From Rhodocyclaceae bacterium (GTDB lineage Bacteria; Pseudomonadota; Gammaproteobacteria; Burkholderiales; Rhodocyclaceae), in contig JAVBXY010000016.1 in assembly GCA_030824275.1 (NCBI GenBank), positions 115,807 through 179,806 of the forward strand: 64,000 bases of DNA, read 5' to 3'. Every line of letters starts with the position of its first letter. Within the stretch, counting starts at the first letter, position 1. Positions 27,424-39,692 of this stretch are shown here, one piece after another. Under the pieces are notes generated by a model. The model searched no databases. It was not told where the DNA came from and saw only the letters and a program-made list of their open reading frames with translations. The translations under genes were made by a program, and so were the position numbers.

Positions 27424-30099
27424 ATGCGCACCGAAACTCCCCAGACCATCTACCTCAAGGACTACACCGCACCCGCCTGGCTGATCGACAGCGTCGATCT
27501 CCATGTCGCCATCCACGACGGATATGCCGAGGTGCGCGCCAAACTCGCCTGCCGCCGCAATCCGCAAGGCGCGGGCGGTGATCTGGTCCTCGATGGAGAA
27601 GAACTGACGTTGCAGGAAGTCGGCCTTGACGGTACGGCGCTTGCCCCGTCGCGCTACACCGTGGGCGAGGAAACCCTCACCATCCACGGCCCCCTGCCCG
27701 ACGCCTTCATGCTGGAAACCCTGGTGCGCATCGAGCCGGACAAGAACACCCAGCTCTCCGGCCTCTACAAATCCAAGGACGGCTACTTCACGCAATGCGA
27801 GGCCCAGGGCTTCCGCCGCATCAGCTTCTACCCGGACCGGCCCGACGTCATGGCGCGCTTTACCTGCGCCATCGAAGCCGACAAGGCGCGTTTCCCGCAA
27901 CTGCTGTCCAACGGCAATCTGGTCGCCTCGGGTGATGCTGACGGCAACCGCCATTGGGCGCGCTGGCAAGACCCCTACGCCAAGCCCGCCTATCTCTTCG
28001 CCCTCGTCGCCGCAAAACTCGACGTGCTCGAAGACCGCTTCGTCACCGGCTCCGGCCGCAACGTGCGCCTCGCCGTGTACGTCGAACCGGGCAAGCTCGA
28101 CCAGTGCGACCACGCCATGGCCGCACTGAAGAAAAGCATGCACTGGGACGAAGTGACTTTCGGCCTGGAGATGGACCTCGACCATTACATGATCGTCGCC
28201 GTCGGCGACTTCAACATGGGCGCCATGGAGAACAAGGGTCTCAACATCTTCAACACCAAGTACGTGCTGGCCCGCCCTGACACCGCCACCGACACCGACT
28301 ACCAGAACATCGACCGCGTCGTCGCCCACGAGTATTTCCACAACTGGACCGGCAACCGCGTCACCTGTCGCGACTGGTTCCAGCTCTCGCTCAAGGAAGG
28401 CCTCACCGTCTTCCGCGATCAGGAATTCGGTGCCGATGTGCATTCCCGCGCCGTTACCCGCATCCAGGAAGTGCGTACCCTGCGCGTCGCCCAGTTCCCC
28501 GAGGACGCCGGCCCCATGGCCCATCCGATCCGGCCCGCCTCCTACGCCGAGATCAACAACTTCTACACCGCCACGGTGTACGAAAAGGGCGCCGAAGTCG
28601 TGCGCATGATCCATACCCTGATCGGCCGCGAGAATTTCCGCAAGGGCATGGACCTCTACTTCCAGCGCCATGACGGCCAGGCCGTCACCTGCGAGGATTT
28701 CGTCGCCGCCATGCAGGATGCATCTGGAACAGACCTCACCCAGTTCCGCCGCTGGTACGCCCGCGCCGGCACGCCGCGCCTGAAGGCCGAGGGCAAATAC
28801 GATGCCGCCGCCCAGCGCTACACGCTCACGCTGACCCAGAGCCTCGCCCCCACCGCCTACGAGCAACGCCTCAAGGAAGCTGGCTTCGCCATCGAGGATG
28901 GCCCGCTGCACATCCCCGTCGCCCTCGGCCTGGTGCTGCCGGACGGCAGCGATGCGCTGCCCGACCTGACGCATGTGCTCTCGCTGACCGAGACCACGCA
29001 GACCTTCGTCTTCGACCACATCCCGGCGCAACCCGTCGCCTCGCTGCTGCGCGACTACTCGGCCCCGGTGCATCTGGACTTCGAACAATCGGACGCCGAA
29101 CTGGCCCATCTGATGGCCCACGACAGTGATCCCTTCAACCGCTGGGAGGCAGGCCAACGCCTTGCCACCCGCGTGCTGCTGGCCGGCATCGCCGTCGCCG
29201 GCGAAGGCAGCGACTGGATACCCGAGGCCTTCGTCGCCGCTGTCGGTCGCGTCCTCGACGACGGCCTGAAGCACGACCCGGCGCTGGCCGCCGAAGCCCT
29301 CGTCCTCCCCGCCGAACAGGTGCTGGCCGAAGAGATCGCCGGGCGCGGCGAGGCCATCAATCCCGACGCCATCTACCTCGCCCGCCTCGCCCTGCGCCGG
29401 CACCTCGCCGCTGCCCTGCGCGAGAAATTCGAGATGGCGTGGTCCGCCCTCGCCCGCTCCCTCGCCGAAGGCCCCTACTCCCCCGAAGGCCCCCAGGCCG
29501 GTCGCCGCGCTCTGCGCAACCTCTGCCTCGGCTATCTCGCCGAATGCGATGCCGCCTATCTCGCATCCACCGTGCTGCCGCAACTGATGGCCCAGTTCGA
29601 AAACGGCGGCAACATGACCGACGTCATCGCCGCGCTGGGCACCCTGGCCAACCTCGACCTGCCCGAGCGCGACCAGGCCCTCACCGCCTTCTACGAACAA
29701 TGGAAGGATGAAGCCCTGGTGGTCGACAAGTGGCTGCAAGTGCAGGCCACCTCGCGCCTGCCCGACACCACCGCCCGCGTCCGCAGCCTGATGCGCCACC
29801 CGGCCTTCGACATCAGGAACCCCAACAAGGTCTACTCGCTGGTGCGCGCCTTCTGCGCCGCCAACCCGCGCCACTTCCACGCCGCCGACGGCAGCGGCTA
29901 CCAGCTCGCCGCCGACGTCATCCTCGAATTGCAGGCCATGAACCCCCAGGTCGCCTCGCGCATCGCTCGGACCTTCGACCGCTGGCGCCAGTTCGATGCC
30001 GTCCGCCAGTCCCACGCCCGCGCCGCCCTCGAACGCGTGCGCGCCTGCGAAGGCCTGGCCAAGGATGTGGCCGAAGTGGTCGGCAACGCACTGGGCTGA
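27424..30099 (+). CDS. pepN: aminopeptidase N
   Basis: 891 aa with GAMEN and HEYFHNWTGNRVT..WFQLSLKEG gluzincin motifs. Confidence 0.97.
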   Translation: MRTETPQTIYLKDYTAPAWLIDSVDLHVAIHDGYAEVRAKLACRRNPQGAGGDLVLDGEELTLQEVGLDGTALAPSRYTVGEETLTIHGPLPDAFMLETLVRIEPDKNTQLSGLYKSKDGYFTQCEAQGFRRISFYPDRPDVMARFTCAIEADKARFPQLLSNGNLVASGDADGNRHWARWQDPYAKPAYLFALVAAKLDVLEDRFVTGSGRNVRLAVYVEPGKLDQCDHAMAALKKSMHWDEVTFGLEMDLDHYMIVAVGDFNMGAMENKGLNIFNTKYVLARPDTATDTDYQNIDRVVAHEYFHNWTGNRVTCRDWFQLSLKEGLTVFRDQEFGADVHSRAVTRIQEVRTLRVAQFPEDAGPMAHPIRPASYAEINNFYTATVYEKGAEVVRMIHTLIGRENFRKGMDLYFQRHDGQAVTCEDFVAAMQDASGTDLTQFRRWYARAGTPRLKAEGKYDAAAQRYTLTLTQSLAPTAYEQRLKEAGFAIEDGPLHIPVALGLVLPDGSDALPDLTHVLSLTETTQTFVFDHIPAQPVASLLRDYSAPVHLDFEQSDAELAHLMAHDSDPFNRWEAGQRLATRVLLAGIAVAGEGSDWIPEAFVAAVGRVLDDGLKHDPALAAEALVLPAEQVLAEEIAGRGEAINPDAIYLARLALRRHLAAALREKFEMAWSALARSLAEGPYSPEGPQAGRRALRNLCLGYLAECDAAYLASTVLPQLMAQFENGGNMTDVIAALGTLANLDLPERDQALTAFYEQWKDEALVVDKWLQVQATSRLPDTTARVRSLMRHPAFDIRNPNKVYSLVRAFCAANPRHFHAADGSGYQLAADVILELQAMNPQVASRIARTFDRWRQFDAVRQSHARAALERVRACEGLAKDVAEVVGNALG

Positions 30100-30124
30100 A
30101 AGTCGGCGATGGCGATACGGCAAG
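30099..30124 (+). repeat. copy of dispersed motif (GATG variant)
   Basis: AAAGTCGGCGATGGCGATACGGCAAG, starting at the last base of the pepN stop codon. Confidence 0.8.
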
Positions 30125-30202
30125 CGTCGGCTGGCCCGCCGCTTGCATTGGCCCTTCCAGTCGAACGTCACTTGTCACGTTCACGCCAACCGGGAGCACT
30201 CC

Positions 30203-30493
30203 ATGCCTAGCCTTCCTTCCACCCTCGATGCCAAGGGAATCGCCGTCCAGGCCGGCGACAGCATCCGCATCCTCGCCGTCACCCTGCCCCCGGACATGGA
30301 CGACGACGACCGCGACATGATCGACTACATGATCGGCTCCGTCTGCGAAATCGACAAAGTCGACACCGAAGGCCTCGCCTGGGTCACCATGTGGTGGAGT
30401 TGCACCGACGGCGTCGCCACCAGCACCGTGGCCCTGTCCCCGCAACAAATGGAAAAGGTCGAACCCGTGGCCGCCCACCCTCGCGCCGCCTGA
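30203..30493 (+). CDS. hypothetical protein (96 aa)
   Basis: ATG at 30203 preceded by GGGAG. Acidic small protein with GC-rich codon usage consistent with its neighbours. No recognisable domain. Confidence 0.5.
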   Translation: MPSLPSTLDAKGIAVQAGDSIRILAVTLPPDMDDDDRDMIDYMIGSVCEIDKVDTEGLAWVTMWWSCTDGVATSTVALSPQQMEKVEPVAAHPRAA

Positions 30494-30532
30494 GGCAATG
30501 CCGGCGGCGCCACAGCGAAGGAAACAGCAAGC

Positions 30533-30874
30533 GTGAGTGGATTTGAAAACTTCGCCGCCGAAGCCGCCAGCATCGAACTAGAACTCCAGCGCAAGGGCGT
30601 CGCCCTCGGCATCGACTGGGAAGACGAAGTCCAGACCCGCGACCTCGCCCGCGCCGCCCTGGCCTGCAAACCCGGCAAGGCCGGCTGCAACTTCGACGAT
30701 CCCATCGAGGCCGCGCGCTTCGCACTCTTCGGCCTTGCCCACCTGATGCTGCACGTCATGCAGGAAAGTGCCGGCGAACACATCCACACCCACGGCGGCC
30801 CGGTCTGGAAAGCCTTCGCCCGCGCCCTCTGGGCCGAACACGACATACGGGAAAGCGGGAGAGACACCGAATGA
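30533..30874 (+). CDS. hypothetical protein (113 aa)
   Basis: GTG start. Coding-like frame translationally coupled (ATGA) to the next gene. No recognisable domain. Confidence 0.5.
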   Translation: MSGFENFAAEAASIELELQRKGVALGIDWEDEVQTRDLARAALACKPGKAGCNFDDPIEAARFALFGLAHLMLHVMQESAGEHIHTHGGPVWKAFARALWAEHDIRESGRDTE

Positions 30875-31221
30875 TCTACTACGCCATCAAGATCACCCTC
30901 TCGGCGCTGCTGATCGTCGCCATCTCGGAAATCGCCAAACGCTCCACCGGCTTCGCGGCGCTGCTCGCCTCACTGCCGCTCACCTCGCTGCTGGCCTTCA
31001 TCTGGCTGCACGTCGAAGACACCCCCAGCGAAAAGATCGCCGAGCTGTCCAGCCAGGTGTTCTGGCTGGTGCTGCCCTCGCTGGTCCTCTTCCTGCTGCT
31101 GCCAATACTGCTGCGCCAGGGCCTCAACTTCTGGCTCAGCCTGAGCCTCTCCGCCGCCGCCACCGCCGGCTGCTACGCCGCCATGCTGCCTCTGCTGCGA
31201 CGCATGGGCGTGGCGATCTGA
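30871..31221 (+). CDS. small membrane protein (DUF3147-like)
   Basis: MIYYAIKITLSALLIVAISEIAKRS and four hydrophobic helices. Family assignment is from memory. Confidence 0.6.
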   Translation: MIYYAIKITLSALLIVAISEIAKRSTGFAALLASLPLTSLLAFIWLHVEDTPSEKIAELSSQVFWLVLPSLVLFLLLPILLRQGLNFWLSLSLSAAATAGCYAAMLPLLRRMGVAI

Positions 31222-31264
31222 AAAGTCGGCGCTGATGAAGCCACTGCGCTACAAGGCGGTCGAG
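31222..31264 (+). repeat. left 43-nt inverted repeat (dispersed-motif head plus 27-nt extension)
   Basis: AAAGTCGGCGCTGATGAAGCCACTGCGCTACAAGGCGGTCGAG. Matches the reverse complement of 33882-33924 at 42/43 positions. The motif tail GATGGCGACACGGCGAA follows at 31290-31306. Confidence 0.9.
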
Positions 31265-31312
31265 CAAAAGACGCTCTCCTCGCCGTAGCGGATGGCGACA
31301 CGGCGAAACGAA

Positions 31313-31714
31313 TTAAGGCTGCGTCAGCGACCAGTGGGTTTGCACGATGCGCCAGCCCACCGCATCGCGCCGATAGACCTCCGTGCAGTTCCACAACATG
31401 CGCGGCCCATCGCCATTCCATGACGCGAAATTGAAAGACAGCGCCGCCATCTCGCCGGCCTCCTGCACCACCGGACTCGACAGCTCGAAATGCTCGGCCC
31501 GGATCGTCCCCCGCAAGCCCTCGTAATACGCTGTCAAGGCTGGCAGCCCGTCGATGCGGCGAGGAATGAAGGGATCGAAATACACCACATCCTGCGCCGA
31601 GATTTCCAGAAAGCCGCCCGGGTCGCCATCCAGCCAGCGGCGTAACGCCGCCCGTTCGAGGTGGATGACTTCGTGTTCGGTGGAGTCTGCGGTACCGTCG
31701 ATACAGGCTGTCAT
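31313..31714 (-). CDS. NTF2-like (SnoaL/DUF4440-type) protein
   Basis: 133 aa from the ATG at 31714. Typical small alpha+beta cone pattern (..FLEISAQDVVYFDPF.., ..WNCTEVYRRDAVGWRIVQTHWS). Confidence 0.6.
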   Translation of the reverse strand: MTACIDGTADSTEHEVIHLERAALRRWLDGDPGGFLEISAQDVVYFDPFIPRRIDGLPALTAYYEGLRGTIRAEHFELSSPVVQEAGEMAALSFNFASWNGDGPRMLWNCTEVYRRDAVGWRIVQTHWSLTQP

Positions 31715-31947
31715 ATCAAGTTCTTTTCTGAACATTCTGTTATCAGCACATGCTAGCGGGCTATTGCCATGCCGTGGCAATAGGCGTTAAATCCAGTCCG
31801 TAGCGTCTGGCGGACAAAAAGCGGCGGGGGCACGTTGCTGGAGAAGCACAAATTTTGGATGCACTAAATGATGTCGCCACAGGATTTATTCCAATGATTT
31901 TTTAATCAGTTCCGCCCGATTTAGCCGTCCTAATAATAGGAATCCAT

Positions 31948-32718
31948 ATGGCCACTTGTTTCGTGATCCAACCATTTGACTCCGGGAAGTTCGATAAGCG
32001 CTTTCAGGATATTTACAAGCCCGCAATCGAATCTGCTGGTCTTGAGGCATATCGAGTCGACCACGACCCCGGCGTCCTAGTCCCCATCGATTCGATCGAA
32101 AAGGGCATTCGGCTTGCCGCCGTATGTTTGGCAGACATCACCGCCGACAATCCCAACGTTTGGTACGAGCTTGGTTATGCTTTTGCATCAGGTCGTCCGG
32201 TTGTCATGGTTTGCTCGGAGGAACGCACCGGCAAGAAGTACCCGTTTGACATTCAGCATAGAAGCATTATCCCGTATCTAGCAGACTCTCCGAGCGATTT
32301 CGACAAGTTGCGAGATAGCCTCACCGCCAAGCTCTCGGCAATCATCAAACAGGATGCTGTACTCGATAAGATCGCCGAAACAGATCCGGTATCGCCTGTT
32401 CATGGGCTTTCGCAGCCAGAAATCTTGGTGCTTGCGGTGCTCGCCGGTGAAGCCTACTTGCCAGACCAAGCCACCGGAGTGAGCGGTGCCAAGCGAAGTG
32501 CTGAGCGTGCCGGTATCACGAGTATGGGTTTCAACCTTGCAGTACGTCGTCTTCTACAGAAGAAACTGATTCGGGAGCAGGAGATATGGAATGAACGAGA
32601 TGGCGAAGGCTATCCGGGCCTCGCGGTCGCCGACGCTGGATGGCAGTGGATCGATGCGAATGACGGGCAGTTCATGTTGAACCGCCCGGAGAAGAAGAAA
32701 GAAGATGACTCGTGGTAG
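31948..32718 (+). CDS. nucleoside 2-deoxyribosyltransferase-like (TIR/NDT-fold) domain fused to a C-terminal winged-helix domain
   Basis: AGGAA RBS. N-terminus FVIQPFDSGKF..IYKPAIE and CLADITADNPNVWYELGYAFASGRPVVMV match the NDT-like Rossmannoid pattern with the conserved Glu. The C-terminus (LSQPEILVLAVL..MGFNLAVRRLLQKKLI) looks wHTH. Lower-GC codon usage. Confidence 0.6.
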   Translation: MATCFVIQPFDSGKFDKRFQDIYKPAIESAGLEAYRVDHDPGVLVPIDSIEKGIRLAAVCLADITADNPNVWYELGYAFASGRPVVMVCSEERTGKKYPFDIQHRSIIPYLADSPSDFDKLRDSLTAKLSAIIKQDAVLDKIAETDPVSPVHGLSQPEILVLAVLAGEAYLPDQATGVSGAKRSAERAGITSMGFNLAVRRLLQKKLIREQEIWNERDGEGYPGLAVADAGWQWIDANDGQFMLNRPEKKKEDDSW

Positions 32719-32748
32719 CCACGAGGCCAATCCCATCATTCCACCGGA

Positions 32749-32772
32749 CCTTGCGCATAACGCTGCGCAAGG
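32749..32772 (+). promoter_or_regulatory. hairpin CCTTGCGC-N8-GCGCAAGG between the two island genes
   Basis: Perfect 8-bp stem. The 3' arm contains the only SD-like AAGG upstream of the GTG at 32776. Confidence 0.35.
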
Positions 32773-32775
32773 CCT

Positions 32776-33129
32776 GTGAAATTGAACGTTGAAGGTCGCG
32801 TGCGCTGGCTTGAACTTTTGCTCGCAGCCATCTTTGGAGCGCTATTCACGGCCTTTCAGTTTCTGTCTGGTCAGTGGTGCGAGCCAACACTCGTTCGTCC
32901 CGTCGCCGGAATTTTCGTCGTCCTAACAGCTGTGCTGTACTTGTACTTCGTTGACGACGAGCGGCGGCCGTTGGTCGGGGTGTGGCACCGCATGCTTTTT
33001 GGGGCAGCGGCAGGTTTTGTTGTGGCCGCTATCTCGAATGGACCTTCCGAGCTATACGCTTTGCTCACGCTTGTAGGCGCCATGCTCGGGTATGTTGGCT
33101 TCCGTTGGCTCAAGCATGTCCCAATCTGA
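32776..33129 (+). CDS. small 4-TM membrane protein, function unknown
   Basis: Four hydrophobic helices in 117 aa. Start is the GTG at 32776 or 32800. Same strand as, and 57 nt after, the NDT-like gene. Confidence 0.5.
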   Translation: MKLNVEGRVRWLELLLAAIFGALFTAFQFLSGQWCEPTLVRPVAGIFVVLTAVLYLYFVDDERRPLVGVWHRMLFGAAAGFVVAAISNGPSELYALLTLVGAMLGYVGFRWLKHVPI

Positions 33130-33199
33130 CCCTCAACGCATCCGTCAACTCGGACGCGCCGTGACGAAGCCGCGTCTCGCCAGTTATATCAGACGTCCT

Positions 33200-33210
33200 C
33201 CCCCCCCCCC
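33200..33210 (+). repeat. C11 homopolymer tract
   Basis: Eleven consecutive C read directly from the sequence. Intergenic, 41 nt upstream of the higB -35 box. Confidence 0.95.
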
Positions 33211-33250
33211 ACGGGAGTGCCTGTGTCTTCAGGGCGGGTAGTAGTAACGC

Positions 33251-33279
33251 TTGACGTTATGTCCGCTACGCGTTAATCT
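33251..33279 (+). promoter_or_regulatory. candidate higBA promoter
   Basis: TTGACG-N17-TAATCT. The -10 ends 6 nt before the higB ATG. Flanked by the inverted hexamers TAACGC (33245-33250) and GCGTTA (33270-33275). Confidence 0.5.
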
Positions 33280-33285
33280 TTTCCG

Positions 33286-33567
33286 ATGGCGATTCGGAGC
33301 TTCAAGTGCAAGGACACACAGGCGCTCTTCCTCGGCAAGAGGGTGCGTCGCTGGGTTAATGTTGAGCGGCCCGCACTACGCAAGCTTGAACAACTTGACT
33401 GGTCTGCTGTCCTGGAAGACCTGCGTGTGCCGCCCGGCAATCAATTGGAAGCATTGAAGGGGAATCGCAAGGGACAACATAGCATTCGCATCAACGATCA
33501 GTGGCGAGTGTGCTTTGTTTGGACCGTGGAAGGCCCGAAAAATGTCGAGATTGTGGATTACCACTGA
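33286..33567 (+). CDS. higB: HigB-type (plasmid maintenance system killer) toxin
   Basis: 93 aa. IRSFKCKDTQALF..LEALKGNRKGQHSIRINDQWRVCF is the HigB/killer-protein pattern. Confidence 0.9.
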   Translation: MAIRSFKCKDTQALFLGKRVRRWVNVERPALRKLEQLDWSAVLEDLRVPPGNQLEALKGNRKGQHSIRINDQWRVCFVWTVEGPKNVEIVDYH

Positions 33568-33578
33568 AGGAGCTAATC

Positions 33579-33878
33579 ATGCGCACGGTTCCCCCTGTTT
33601 CTCCCGGCGAAATGCTGGAAGAGGAATTCCTGAAACCACTCGGTCTGACCAAGTACCGCCTGGCCAAGGATATCGGTGTGCCCCCCCAGAGAATCGGGGA
33701 TATCGTGGCAGGCAAGCGGGCCATTACGGCCGACACCGATTTGCGGCTGTGCCGATACTTTGGGCTCAGCGATGGCTGGTGGCTTCGAGGGCAGGCTAAC
33801 TACGACACAGCAGTCGCTCGCGAAATCATGGGCGAAGCGCTTTCGCGTATTTCCAAGTGTCGCCTTCTTACTGCCTGA
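33579..33878 (+). CDS. higA: HigA-type antitoxin (XRE HTH)
   Basis: GAAGGAG RBS. PVSPGEMLEEEFLKPLGLTKYRLAKDIGVPPQRIGDIVAGKRAITADTDLRLCRYFG. Confidence 0.9.
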   Translation: MRTVPPVSPGEMLEEEFLKPLGLTKYRLAKDIGVPPQRIGDIVAGKRAITADTDLRLCRYFGLSDGWWLRGQANYDTAVAREIMGEALSRISKCRLLTA

Positions 33879-33881
33879 GTC

Positions 33882-33924
33882 CTCGACCGCCTTGTAGCGC
33901 AGTAGCTTCATCAGCGCCGACTTT
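33882..33924 (-). repeat. right 43-nt inverted repeat
   Basis: Reverse complement is AAAGTCGGCGCTGATGAAGCTACTGCGCTACAAGGCGGTCGAG. Starts 4 nt after the higA stop. Confidence 0.9.
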
Positions 33925-33941
33925 CTGACGGACATCCGCCC

Positions 33942-34340
33942 ATGGACGAACGACAACTCCAGCACTATGCCGACAAGCTCGCCTATGAGATCGACGCCTG
34001 GGATTTGAAGGTTCTGCTCGACGAGAAGCAGCCGGTAATCGTGATCGATGCCCGCTCGCCGCAGGCCTACGCGACGGAACACATTCCCGGTGCGATCTCC
34101 TTGCCCCATCGCACGATGGATGCGGCAACGACGGCTGGCCTCGACAAGTTGGTGATGGTCATCACCTACTGCGACGGCATCGGCTGTAACGCTTCCACCA
34201 AGGGGGCGCTGGCTATGAGCAAGCTCGGCTTTCGGGTCAAGGAGCTGATGGGCGGGCTGGACTGGTGGAAGCGGGACGGCCATCCCACCGAGGGCAATGC
34301 CGCTTCACCGGCCAGTGGTGCCGCCTGCGGCTGCGACTGA
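33942..34340 (+). CDS. rhodanese-domain protein
   Basis: IDARSPQAYATEHIPGAISLP and the active-site Cys region ITYCDGIGCNAS. Confidence 0.8.
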   Translation: MDERQLQHYADKLAYEIDAWDLKVLLDEKQPVIVIDARSPQAYATEHIPGAISLPHRTMDAATTAGLDKLVMVITYCDGIGCNASTKGALAMSKLGFRVKELMGGLDWWKRDGHPTEGNAASPASGAACGCD

Positions 34341-34351
34341 ATGCCATAGCA

Positions 34352-34591
34352 TCACGCATCGCTGCGCAGCAGCGCCATCAGATCATCGGTCCGCCACTGG
34401 ATGTCGGCTTTACCGCGAGCCGCCTCGAAGCGGTCCGGCTTGCGACTGGGGCAGGCACCGAGTTCTTTGATCACCACTTCGCCGTCGTCATTGATGGCAA
34501 ATTCGACCAAGCAACCCGGCTTCAATTTCAGCGCATCGCGGATCGGCTTGGGAATGGTGACCCGGCCTCTGCTGGTAAGCGTCGACGCCAT
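34352..34591 (-). CDS. AbrB/SpoVT-fold antitoxin-like protein (VapB-like), no cognate toxin gene
   Basis: TSRGRVTIPKPIRDALKLKPG swapped-hairpin motif. No PIN or other toxin ORF lies downstream. Confidence 0.7.
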   Translation of the reverse strand: MASTLTSRGRVTIPKPIRDALKLKPGCLVEFAINDDGEVVIKELGACPSRKPDRFEAARGKADIQWRTDDLMALLRSDA

Positions 34592-34609
34592 GACGTCCCT
34601 CCTGTCAAA

Positions 34610-35521
34610 TCAGACCTTGCCGCGCAGCTTGCCGATGCCTTCCACTACCAATAGCGCCAGCGCGCCGGCAACGAGGCCGACGAGCAGATCAGCCACCGGG
34701 CCAACCATGGTGCCAAGAACGCTGCCGGCACTTTCGGCCAGATGGTGGATGGTGTCGTGGGCGCCGGGCAGGCCGTGGGTGAGGATGCCGCCGCCGACGA
34801 GGAACATGGCAATGGTGCCGATGACGGTGAGGGACTTCATCAGCCTGGGCGCGGCGAGCAGCAGGCCGCGACCGAGTGCCTGGGCGGCGGCGTTGGCCTT
34901 GGTGGTGAGGTGCAGGCCGAGGTCGTCCATCTTGACGATGGCGGCGACGATGCCGTAGACGCCGACGGTCATCAGCAGGCCGATGCCGGCCAGCACGGTG
35001 AACTGTGAGGCAAAGGGCTTGTCGGCGACGGTGCCGAGGGTGATGACGATGATCTCGGCGGAGAGGACGAAGTCGGTGCGAATGGCGCCCTTGATCTTGT
35101 CCTTTTCCATGCTGGCGAGATCGATGTGTTCATCGGCGAGATGGGCGAGATGTTCGGCATGGTGGGCAGCCTCTTCTTCGGCGCCGTGTAAAAACTTGTG
35201 GGCAAGTTTCTCGACACCTTCGAAGCACAGGAAGAGGCCGCCAGCCATGAGCAGCGGGGTGATGGCCCAGGGGATCATGGCGCTGATGGCGAGCGCTGCC
35301 GGCACGAGGATGGCCTTGTTCTTCAGCGAGCCGACGGCGACGGCCCAGACCACGGGCAGCTCGCGCTCGGCACGGACGCCGGCGACCTGCTGGGCATTGA
35401 GGGCGAGATCGTCGCCGAGGACGCCGGCGGTCTTCTTGGCGGCGACCTTGGTCATCACCGCGACGTCGTCGAGGATGGTGGCGATGTCGTCGATCAGGGC
35501 GAGCAGGCTGGCTCCGGCCAT
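34610..35521 (-). CDS. DUF808 (YedI-like) membrane protein
   Basis: MAGASLLALIDDIATILDDVAVMTKVAAKKTAGVLGDDLALNAQQV N-terminus characteristic of the family (from memory), plus multiple TM helices. Confidence 0.8.
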   Translation of the reverse strand: MAGASLLALIDDIATILDDVAVMTKVAAKKTAGVLGDDLALNAQQVAGVRAERELPVVWAVAVGSLKNKAILVPAALAISAMIPWAITPLLMAGGLFLCFEGVEKLAHKFLHGAEEEAAHHAEHLAHLADEHIDLASMEKDKIKGAIRTDFVLSAEIIVITLGTVADKPFASQFTVLAGIGLLMTVGVYGIVAAIVKMDDLGLHLTTKANAAAQALGRGLLLAAPRLMKSLTVIGTIAMFLVGGGILTHGLPGAHDTIHHLAESAGSVLGTMVGPVADLLVGLVAGALALLVVEGIGKLRGKV

Positions 35522-39661: not shown

Positions 39662-39666
39662 GAATA

Positions 39667-39692
39667 TCGCCGTGCCATCAGCGCCGACTTTT
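39667..39692 (-). repeat. copy of dispersed motif
   Basis: Reverse complement is AAAAGTCGGCGCTGATGGCACGGCGA. 5 nt after the pntB stop, in sense orientation. Confidence 0.85.

Follow-up and report, generated by a model that had tools for sequence, protein, structure and literature searches.

We have analyzed a 64,000-nt stretch of DNA from a Rhodocyclaceae bacterium (assembly GCA_030824275.1, contig JAVBXY010000016.1, positions 115,807 to 179,806; hereafter the window), in which a group of small genes ending with a higBA toxin-antitoxin pair is bracketed by a pair of inverted repeats. An earlier reading of the letters alone (the sequence-only reading) had described these repeats and proposed that the segment between them could be the scar of an inversion or insertion, or a non-autonomous element mobilised in trans. 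A repeat search of the window bore out the pair itself. The arms, 31222-31264 and 33882-33924, are 43 nt long, lie 2617 nt apart and match as reverse complements at 42 of 43 positions (98% complementary), while the runner-up inverted pair within 30000-35500 had 30 nt and 73%. The lone mismatch is a C at 31242 against 33904 (T on the minus strand), and there is an exact block of 21 nt on each side of it. The reported placement of the arms also holds: the left one adjoins the stop codon (31219-31221) of a DUF3147-like gene (PF28289 and NCBIfam NF006749 matches, 4.9e-44), and the right one begins 4 nt past the stop codon of higA (33876-33878), with GAC in between, and ends 17 nt upstream of the ATG of a rhodanese gene. 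The left copy is found between the convergent DUF3147-like and SnoaL genes, a location that is usual for the repeat. Five open reading frames (ORFs) lie between the arms, coding for a SnoaL protein, a protein similar to TIR effectors and to nucleoside-2-deoxyribosyltransferases (NDT), a small protein with four transmembrane segments (4-TM), HigB and HigA. Table 1 gives the coordinates; L111 and L112 in it are loci of two relatives.

Table 1. Features of the locus, in window coordinates
Feature	Position	Strand	Evidence or remark
Short-form motif over the PepN stop codon	30099-30125	+	Left edge of the 3.8-kb accessory stretch without counterpart in L112
Complete long-form repeat (left copy)	31222-31307	+	Family-profile nhmmer E=2.6e-28
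Head of left copy, AAAGTCGGCGC	31222-31232	+	
60-nt hairpin module of left copy, TGATGAAGCC...GTAGCGGA	31233-31292	+	
Tail of left copy, TGGCGACACGGCGAA	31293-31307	+	
SnoaL/NTF2-like gene	31313-31714	-	Pfam SnoaL_3 1.4e-7; GC ~0.62, host-like
Low-GC leader, ~185 nt	31743-31927	.	Aligned with L111 578-760
TIR/NDT-like protein, 256 aa	31948-32718	+	PADLOC TIR-effector 7.7e-9
Second palindromic repeat, unrelated	32732-32790	+	Between the NDT-like and 4-TM genes
Small 4-TM protein	32776-33129	+	ORF list; weak sub-threshold Pfam matches only
higB toxin gene	33286-33567	+	HigB-like_toxin PF05015 1.5e-15
higA antitoxin gene	33579-33878	+	HigA TIGR02607 4.9e-28, above family cut-off
Half copy of the repeat (right copy)	33882-33924	-	Profile positions 2-45 only, E=1.8e-12
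First 32 nt of module in half copy	33882-33913	-	
Head of half copy	33914-33924	-	
MazE/AbrB-type antitoxin-like gene	34352-34591	-	PF04014 3.3e-9

A dispersed hairpin repeat of Rhodocyclaceae

The left arm is part of a complete unit of about 85 nt, the long form of a repeat, in which a hairpin module of 60 nt separates a head of 11 nt from a tail of 15 nt. The repeat has as its basic unit a short motif, about 25 nt long, that resembles the repetitive extragenic palindromic (REP) sequences, AAAGTCGGCGCTGRYG..ACGGCGA. The motif mostly reads AAAGTCGGCGCTGRYGnnACGGCGA and is located just 3' of a stop codon. The head of the arm, AAAGTCGGCGCTGATG, belongs to this motif and has 15 matches in the window against 1.1 expected; one uninterrupted unit, previously noticed near 39667, exists at 39666-39691. 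In the long form the loop of the short motif is split between GCGC and TG, and the module sits there. The tail of the motif that had been seen 3' of the left arm is present, at 31291-31307, one base off the earlier coordinates. Folding of the left copy gives a long hairpin with -39.2 kcal/mol and z=-3.15. Of the 15 pairs in the consensus hairpin three show compensatory changes, among them CTAC/GTAG to CAGC/GCTG and GAGC/GCTC to GGGC/GCCC. The arms of the repeat contain GTAG/CTAC, and many REPs contain these tetranucleotides. An Rfam scan of 31100-34100 (E<=10) returned two chance-level matches only, and the family is not in Rfam. It seems to be undescribed in the literature, though of a known kind, i.e., similar to REPs, to REPINs (REP doublets forming hairpins) and to miniature inverted-repeat transposable elements (MITEs).

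The sequence-only reading had described the inner 27 nt of the arms as an extension seen nowhere else in the window. This is correct for the window, but the extension is not unique and belongs to a high-copy repeat. In the source freshwater-sediment metagenome (run X1), contig depth over 31220-31306 was about 4400 compared with 51-86 in the flanks, i.e., 50-80 times higher, and the loose contig ends were sharply placed at 31219-31223 and 31305-31307. About 40 other X1 contigs end in the repeat or cross it, with 4-7 differences, and several of the repeat-bearing contigs have a depth of 53-90, the same depth class as the genome of the window. We also searched a set of genomes, one for each species, for a 20-nt core of the extension (GCYACTGCGCTACAAGGCGG) and obtained 21 loci. 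Two of them were chance matches inside genes, and the remaining 19 were found in metagenome-assembled genomes (MAGs) of Rhodocyclaceae type (Rugosibacter, Propionivibrio and others, one of them labelled merely "Gammaproteobacteria"). The full head-to-tail unit was present in each, all 19 copies starting as full units. The repeat is intergenic in the window and at the 19 MAG loci.

The L013 and L018 copies match the left 43-mer at every position, and the L008 copy does so for the right one (20 of the 43 positions were fixed beforehand by the search pattern). The C/T difference between the two arms recurs as a polymorphism across the family. Since the arms are identical to copies of other species and even their single difference is found again elsewhere, the 42/43 identity reflects conservation of the family and not a local duplication. 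The window has these two long-form copies only. In another Rhodocyclaceae MAG (L011, 1476-1788) some 40 nt separate a complete repeat from the 3' end of a gene for a HigA-like protein, 37% identical to HigA of the window; chance may explain this vicinity, or the repeat may be repeatedly associated with toxin-antitoxin genes.

Comparison of the copies indicated how the long form is built. At L111, which has a 92%-identical ortholog of the DUF3147-like gene, the orthologous site carries an uninterrupted short motif, AAAGTCGGCGCCGGCGGGACGGCGAA. In L009 (375-530) the loop of one module is interrupted, after CGCTC, by another module of 60 nt whose ends are the same. The copies in L013, L015, L021 and L022 are interrupted at this point too (CGCTC^T), in their case by a hairpin of about 39 nt (AGCTTTGCAGACCTG...CAGGTC) that is unrelated to the module. 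Composite forms of the repeat in other Rhodocyclaceae MAGs include L004 1765-1863. To judge from these alignments the 60-nt module is a discrete insert into the short motif, and the left copy, as had been proposed, is a normal motif with an inserted piece. Because L111 has the CTGA of the stop codon followed by the short motif only, the apparent left end of the segment was built in two steps on backbone DNA. The result is a well-defined repeat system, with a 25-nt motif, a 60-nt self-inserting module and an extra hairpin of about 39 nt, that extends across genera of the Rhodocyclaceae.

The half copy and the adjoining islet

The right arm is a half repeat, cut at 33881/33882, near the apex of the hairpin and precisely where the low-GC islet adjoins. 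Other copies with the same 43-mer, in four metagenomes, do not stop at 33882 but go on leftwards into ...GGCGAGGAGAGCGTCTTTTG, which completes the module. We searched the 64-kb window with the family profile, down to E=100, and found no second half. A resemblance at 31798-31830 (CCGTAGCG..TGGCG), noticed by eye, was considered as the lost half; the profile did not recover it, and we take it as due to chance.

The segment between the arms is not homogeneous. In L111 about 405 nt have been deleted between GCAC(G)ATGC microhomologies, and about 45 nt of the 3' end of the SnoaL gene are left (remnant and microhomology were recognised by eye), and because of this remnant the SnoaL gene must be counted as backbone and not as part of the islet. 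Behind it comes the leader, also present in L111 (blastn core 31758-31796, 85%), which has a hairpin, CTATTGCC-N7-GGCAATAG, followed by GCGTTAAATCCAG. The cargo behind the leader is different in L111, where we read an FRG-like ORF (read as such, with no Pfam scan). GC is 0.48-0.58 from about 31700 to 33900, a drop that begins some 500 nt inside the left arm. The variable DNA begins at about 31743-31936 and not at 31222, and the leader has the appearance of a constant flank beside a small hot spot for islets, in which two close relatives have different defence-like cargo behind the same 185-nt leader.

The second relative, L112, has proteins similar to those of the window (PepN ~85%, rhodanese 84-90%, DUF808 ~92%), and in it the stop codon of PepN is followed by a 37-nt spacer and the ATG of the rhodanese gene, with no motif. 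The stretch without counterpart there is 30100-33941, 3.8 kb, larger than the bracketed segment. The bracketed genes vary among relatives, as the sequence-only reading had anticipated, with different cargo in L111 and PepN joined to the rhodanese gene in L112. We also compared 80 metagenome PepN loci; no gene downstream of PepN was in common with the window, even at 84% and 76% PepN identity, and no empty site was found by this route.

The first gene of the islet is a candidate defence gene. Its product also matches PF05014 (2.9e-5, under the family cut-off), and the label of winged helix-turn-helix-like for its C-terminal part is that of the sequence-only reading. Homologs are widespread at 70-91% identity, and the family is highly conserved across Betaproteobacteria. 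In L114 (1-1100) the homolog is an integron cassette between canonical attC sites, beside an IS110 transposase gene, and the similarity to the window starts at the cassette edge (31936). In L116 (1-12771) it lies in a defence island together with RES, Mrr, a reverse transcriptase, an AAA_13 ATPase and a TIR-WD40 protein. The islet ends with HigBA, which has the arrangement of a type II toxin-antitoxin system, toxin gene first and helix-turn-helix antitoxin gene next, 11 nt apart.

There is evidence of recent exchange of this islet. In two aquatic metagenomes (runs X4 and X5) the region 32078-33749 was present with 0-1 mismatches, and over the rest of the 18 kb compared there was no depth, except for short diverged matches of repeat type. 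Being near-identical in X4 and X5 without this backbone, the islet has moved between hosts recently, a case of transfer that includes an integron-type cassette gene outside any integron. The C11 tract between the 4-TM gene and higB (33200-33210) is one base shorter in the near-identical islet of X5, so that its length is variable. Exact-protein look-ups with the rhodanese, DUF3147-like, HigA and NDT-like proteins gave matches in the source sample only. No tRNA that could act as integration site was found in 20000-45000, and a promoter and terminator scan gave nothing above shuffled expectation.

Origin of the inverted pair

We consider it likely, with good confidence, that the inverted pair consists of two members of the dispersed, hairpin-forming intergenic repeat of Rhodocyclaceae described above, the right one cut at a horizontally acquired islet. 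The long form would have arisen by insertion of the 60-nt module between GCGC and TG of the short motif. The islet (TIR/NDT-like, 4-TM and higBA genes) would have been acquired horizontally and joined to the chromosome at a resident long-form copy of opposite orientation, which was probably broken in situ near its apex, by the islet insertion or by an adjacent deletion. The module itself may be a non-autonomous element of the REPIN or MITE type, moved in trans by a transposase encoded elsewhere. Such a transposase would most plausibly be of the HUH/Y1 class (a REP-associated tyrosine transposase, RAYT, or IS200-like) acting on hairpin DNA, after the REPIN-RAYT model (PMC3116915, PMC3337134). 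Should a cognate Y1 transposase come to light, its target choice could be studied at the exact insertion sites that the nested copies provide.

Several observations weigh against this reading. The search for the other half of the right copy was negative, and its truncation in situ is therefore an inference. A 4-nt direct repeat, CTGA, similar to a target-site duplication, lies directly outside both arms (31218-31221 and 33925-33928). The copy number derives from metagenome depth, to which related bacteria may add. Two copies 2.6 kb apart are denser than the family average. Finally, a tblastn search of the window and of 116 loci for a RAYT or IS200-like gene was negative, a weak test made with an approximate query. 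As for the direct repeat, the left CTGA is the stop of the DUF3147-like gene and is kept in L111, whose site has the short motif only.

The half repeat could also have come with the islet from a donor with the same family, or be an older solitary half (a "REP singlet") that the islet abutted later. The aquatic and groundwater metagenomes that have islet sequences also contain the repeat family, no second half was found at the other end of the islet, and single REPs are described as remnants of doublets (PMC3337134). On the other side, every X4 and X5 contig with the 43-mer goes on into the module and not into higA, the copies of the other genomes all begin as full units, and the half copy has its head towards the rhodanese gene, as a resident intergenic copy would. 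On balance we regard this origin of the half copy as unlikely.

More speculative, and in our opinion quite improbable, is an extension of the proposal made above. The module would be a currently active mini-element that seeks hairpins, entering 3' of GC(G/T)C in the loops of the short motif and of the module itself, and the extruded apex would act as a site of landing or breakage that captures, with no recombinase nearby, integron-derived defence and toxin-antitoxin cassettes. If this were true, small defence islets of Rhodocyclaceae would start from copies of the repeat.

We have also considered an inversion of the segment by crossover at the two inverted copies, through RecA or a recombinase encoded elsewhere, which would give two orientations of the SnoaL gene plus islet. 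The two arms are inverted, 2.6 kb apart, with 21-nt exact blocks flanking one mismatch, and the Logan contigs break at both of them. Such breaks are expected at any high-copy repeat, and blocks of 21 nt are below the length of an efficient RecA substrate. Besides, L003 connects the DUF3147 gene across the left arm with CAAAAGAC, and L105 and L001 carry the T variant at the right arm, all in the orientation of the window. No joint of the inverted form was detected among the contigs of the source sample (contigs only), and neither an invertase nor a tyrosine recombinase turned up in the segment or in the rest of the window. We interpret the "joints" seen among the contigs compared with the window as other loci that share the short motif, not as rearrangements. 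Inversion is thus very improbable, and of the inversion or insertion scar suggested originally what stands is the right copy cut at the islet junction.

The explanation with least in its favour, hardly credible in view of the data above, is that 31222-33924 is a non-autonomous transposon of 2.7 kb with 43-nt terminal inverted repeats and a 4-bp CTGA duplication, mobilised in trans: the near-perfect repeat with CTGA directly outside both arms, the higBA and defence-like cargo typical of mobile DNA and the interior that varies among relatives would fit it, while the left arm is only part of a complete family member, both arms are identical to copies of other species, the low GC starts well inside the left arm, no transposase is found among the ORFs, the islet of X4 and X5 is joined to neither arm, and the same site in L111, with its short motif, SnoaL remnant and leader, makes the left end and the SnoaL gene backbone, which largely refutes it. 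Neither does the segment behave as one block that is present or absent, because L111 keeps its left part with other cargo and L112 misses the larger 3.8 kb. The arm pair does not delimit a mobile unit. The observation that the segment has no recombinase was right, with neither transposase nor recombinase among its ORFs; the element moved in trans that had been suggested in connection with it finds no support, its supposed ends being ordinary members of a dispersed family. A striking inverted repeat around a low-GC toxin-antitoxin islet can be just two members of a genome-wide repeat family, and a cross-genome search should precede any mobile-element call.

Known repeat systems and minor features of the locus

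The closest parallel is that of REPs and REPINs. REPINs are REP doublets that form hairpins and are mobilised by RAYT transposases (PMC3116915, PMC3337134). As in these, the Rhodocyclaceae repeat is short, extragenic and present in tens of copies, two inverted arms with a spacer form a hairpin, half copies exist, and the conservation across related genera is compatible with vertical persistence. It differs in that no cognate RAYT gene, in such systems a single-copy Y1 transposase gene with repeats usually at its sides, was linked to it in the window and the loci searched (approximate query), and in that the hairpin module is a discrete 60-nt insert in the loop of a 25-nt motif and can nest in itself. 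With MITEs, the Correia elements (NEMIS) of Neisseria, the ERIC sequences and the bacterial interspersed mosaic elements (BIMEs) of E. coli it shares being non-coding, palindromic and dispersed, with presence/absence polymorphism at orthologous sites and modular or mosaic variants. Unlike them, the module has no clear target-site duplication and no known parent insertion sequence, and the GATG found at both of its ends is not reproduced in the nested copy.

Another intergenic repeat has been described in Betaproteobacteria (Bordetella, Polaromonas and others), the BRE, of about 90 bp and with partial copies of 40-60 bp (PMC3110155). The size, the intergenic location and the existence of partial copies are similar. 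However, the sequence is unrelated (BRE reads TTTTTGGCCGCGGGCCGCCCAAGGCAAAAAAGCCCCC...), and the tandem arrays of BRE have no equivalent in the Rhodocyclaceae repeat. Neither GTCGGCGC nor CTACAAGG had a match in the supplementary list of BRE sequences (PMC3110155), and identity of the two was discarded.

The islet recalls an integron in being made of small co-oriented genes that include a toxin-antitoxin pair, as chromosomal cassette arrays do, and in the attC-flanked state of the NDT/TIR-like gene in L114. Cassettes bounded by attC sites should have paired RYYYAAC / GTTRRRY cores at their limits; in the window no cassette is surrounded by such an R''/R' pair, and the 85-nt repeat is not an attC. 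The same reading was tried for the palindrome at 32732-32790 and for the leader hairpin (GTTAAAT core), and again no paired R'' core was seen by eye in any of the three. For an integron integrase, the best match in the 64-kb window had E 0.7 (tblastn with an approximate IntI1 query, a weak test).

The palindrome at 32732-32790, built as CCCATCATTCCACCGG..hairpin..CCGGTGAATTCAAACGTTG with stems that differ by compensatory changes, is itself a repeat and not a canonical attC. It is multi-copy in a groundwater metagenome (run X7), with a depth of 115-130 versus 10 alongside, and in a Rhodocyclales MAG (L108-L110; L108 853-911 and 1418-1467) a HicA-family toxin gene pair lies between two direct copies of it. 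The true start of the 4-TM gene is possibly later than 32776.

The stretch 30099-33924 is also bounded by inverted heads of the motif (30099-30125 on the plus strand and 33882-33924 on the minus strand), with CTG outside both; this arrangement may be meaningful, or it may reflect the mere habit of the motif of lying beside stop codons. Further downstream, the MazE/AbrB-type gene is located between the rhodanese and DUF808 genes, without an adjacent toxin gene. It is absent in L112, where the rhodanese and DUF808 genes are 11 nt apart.

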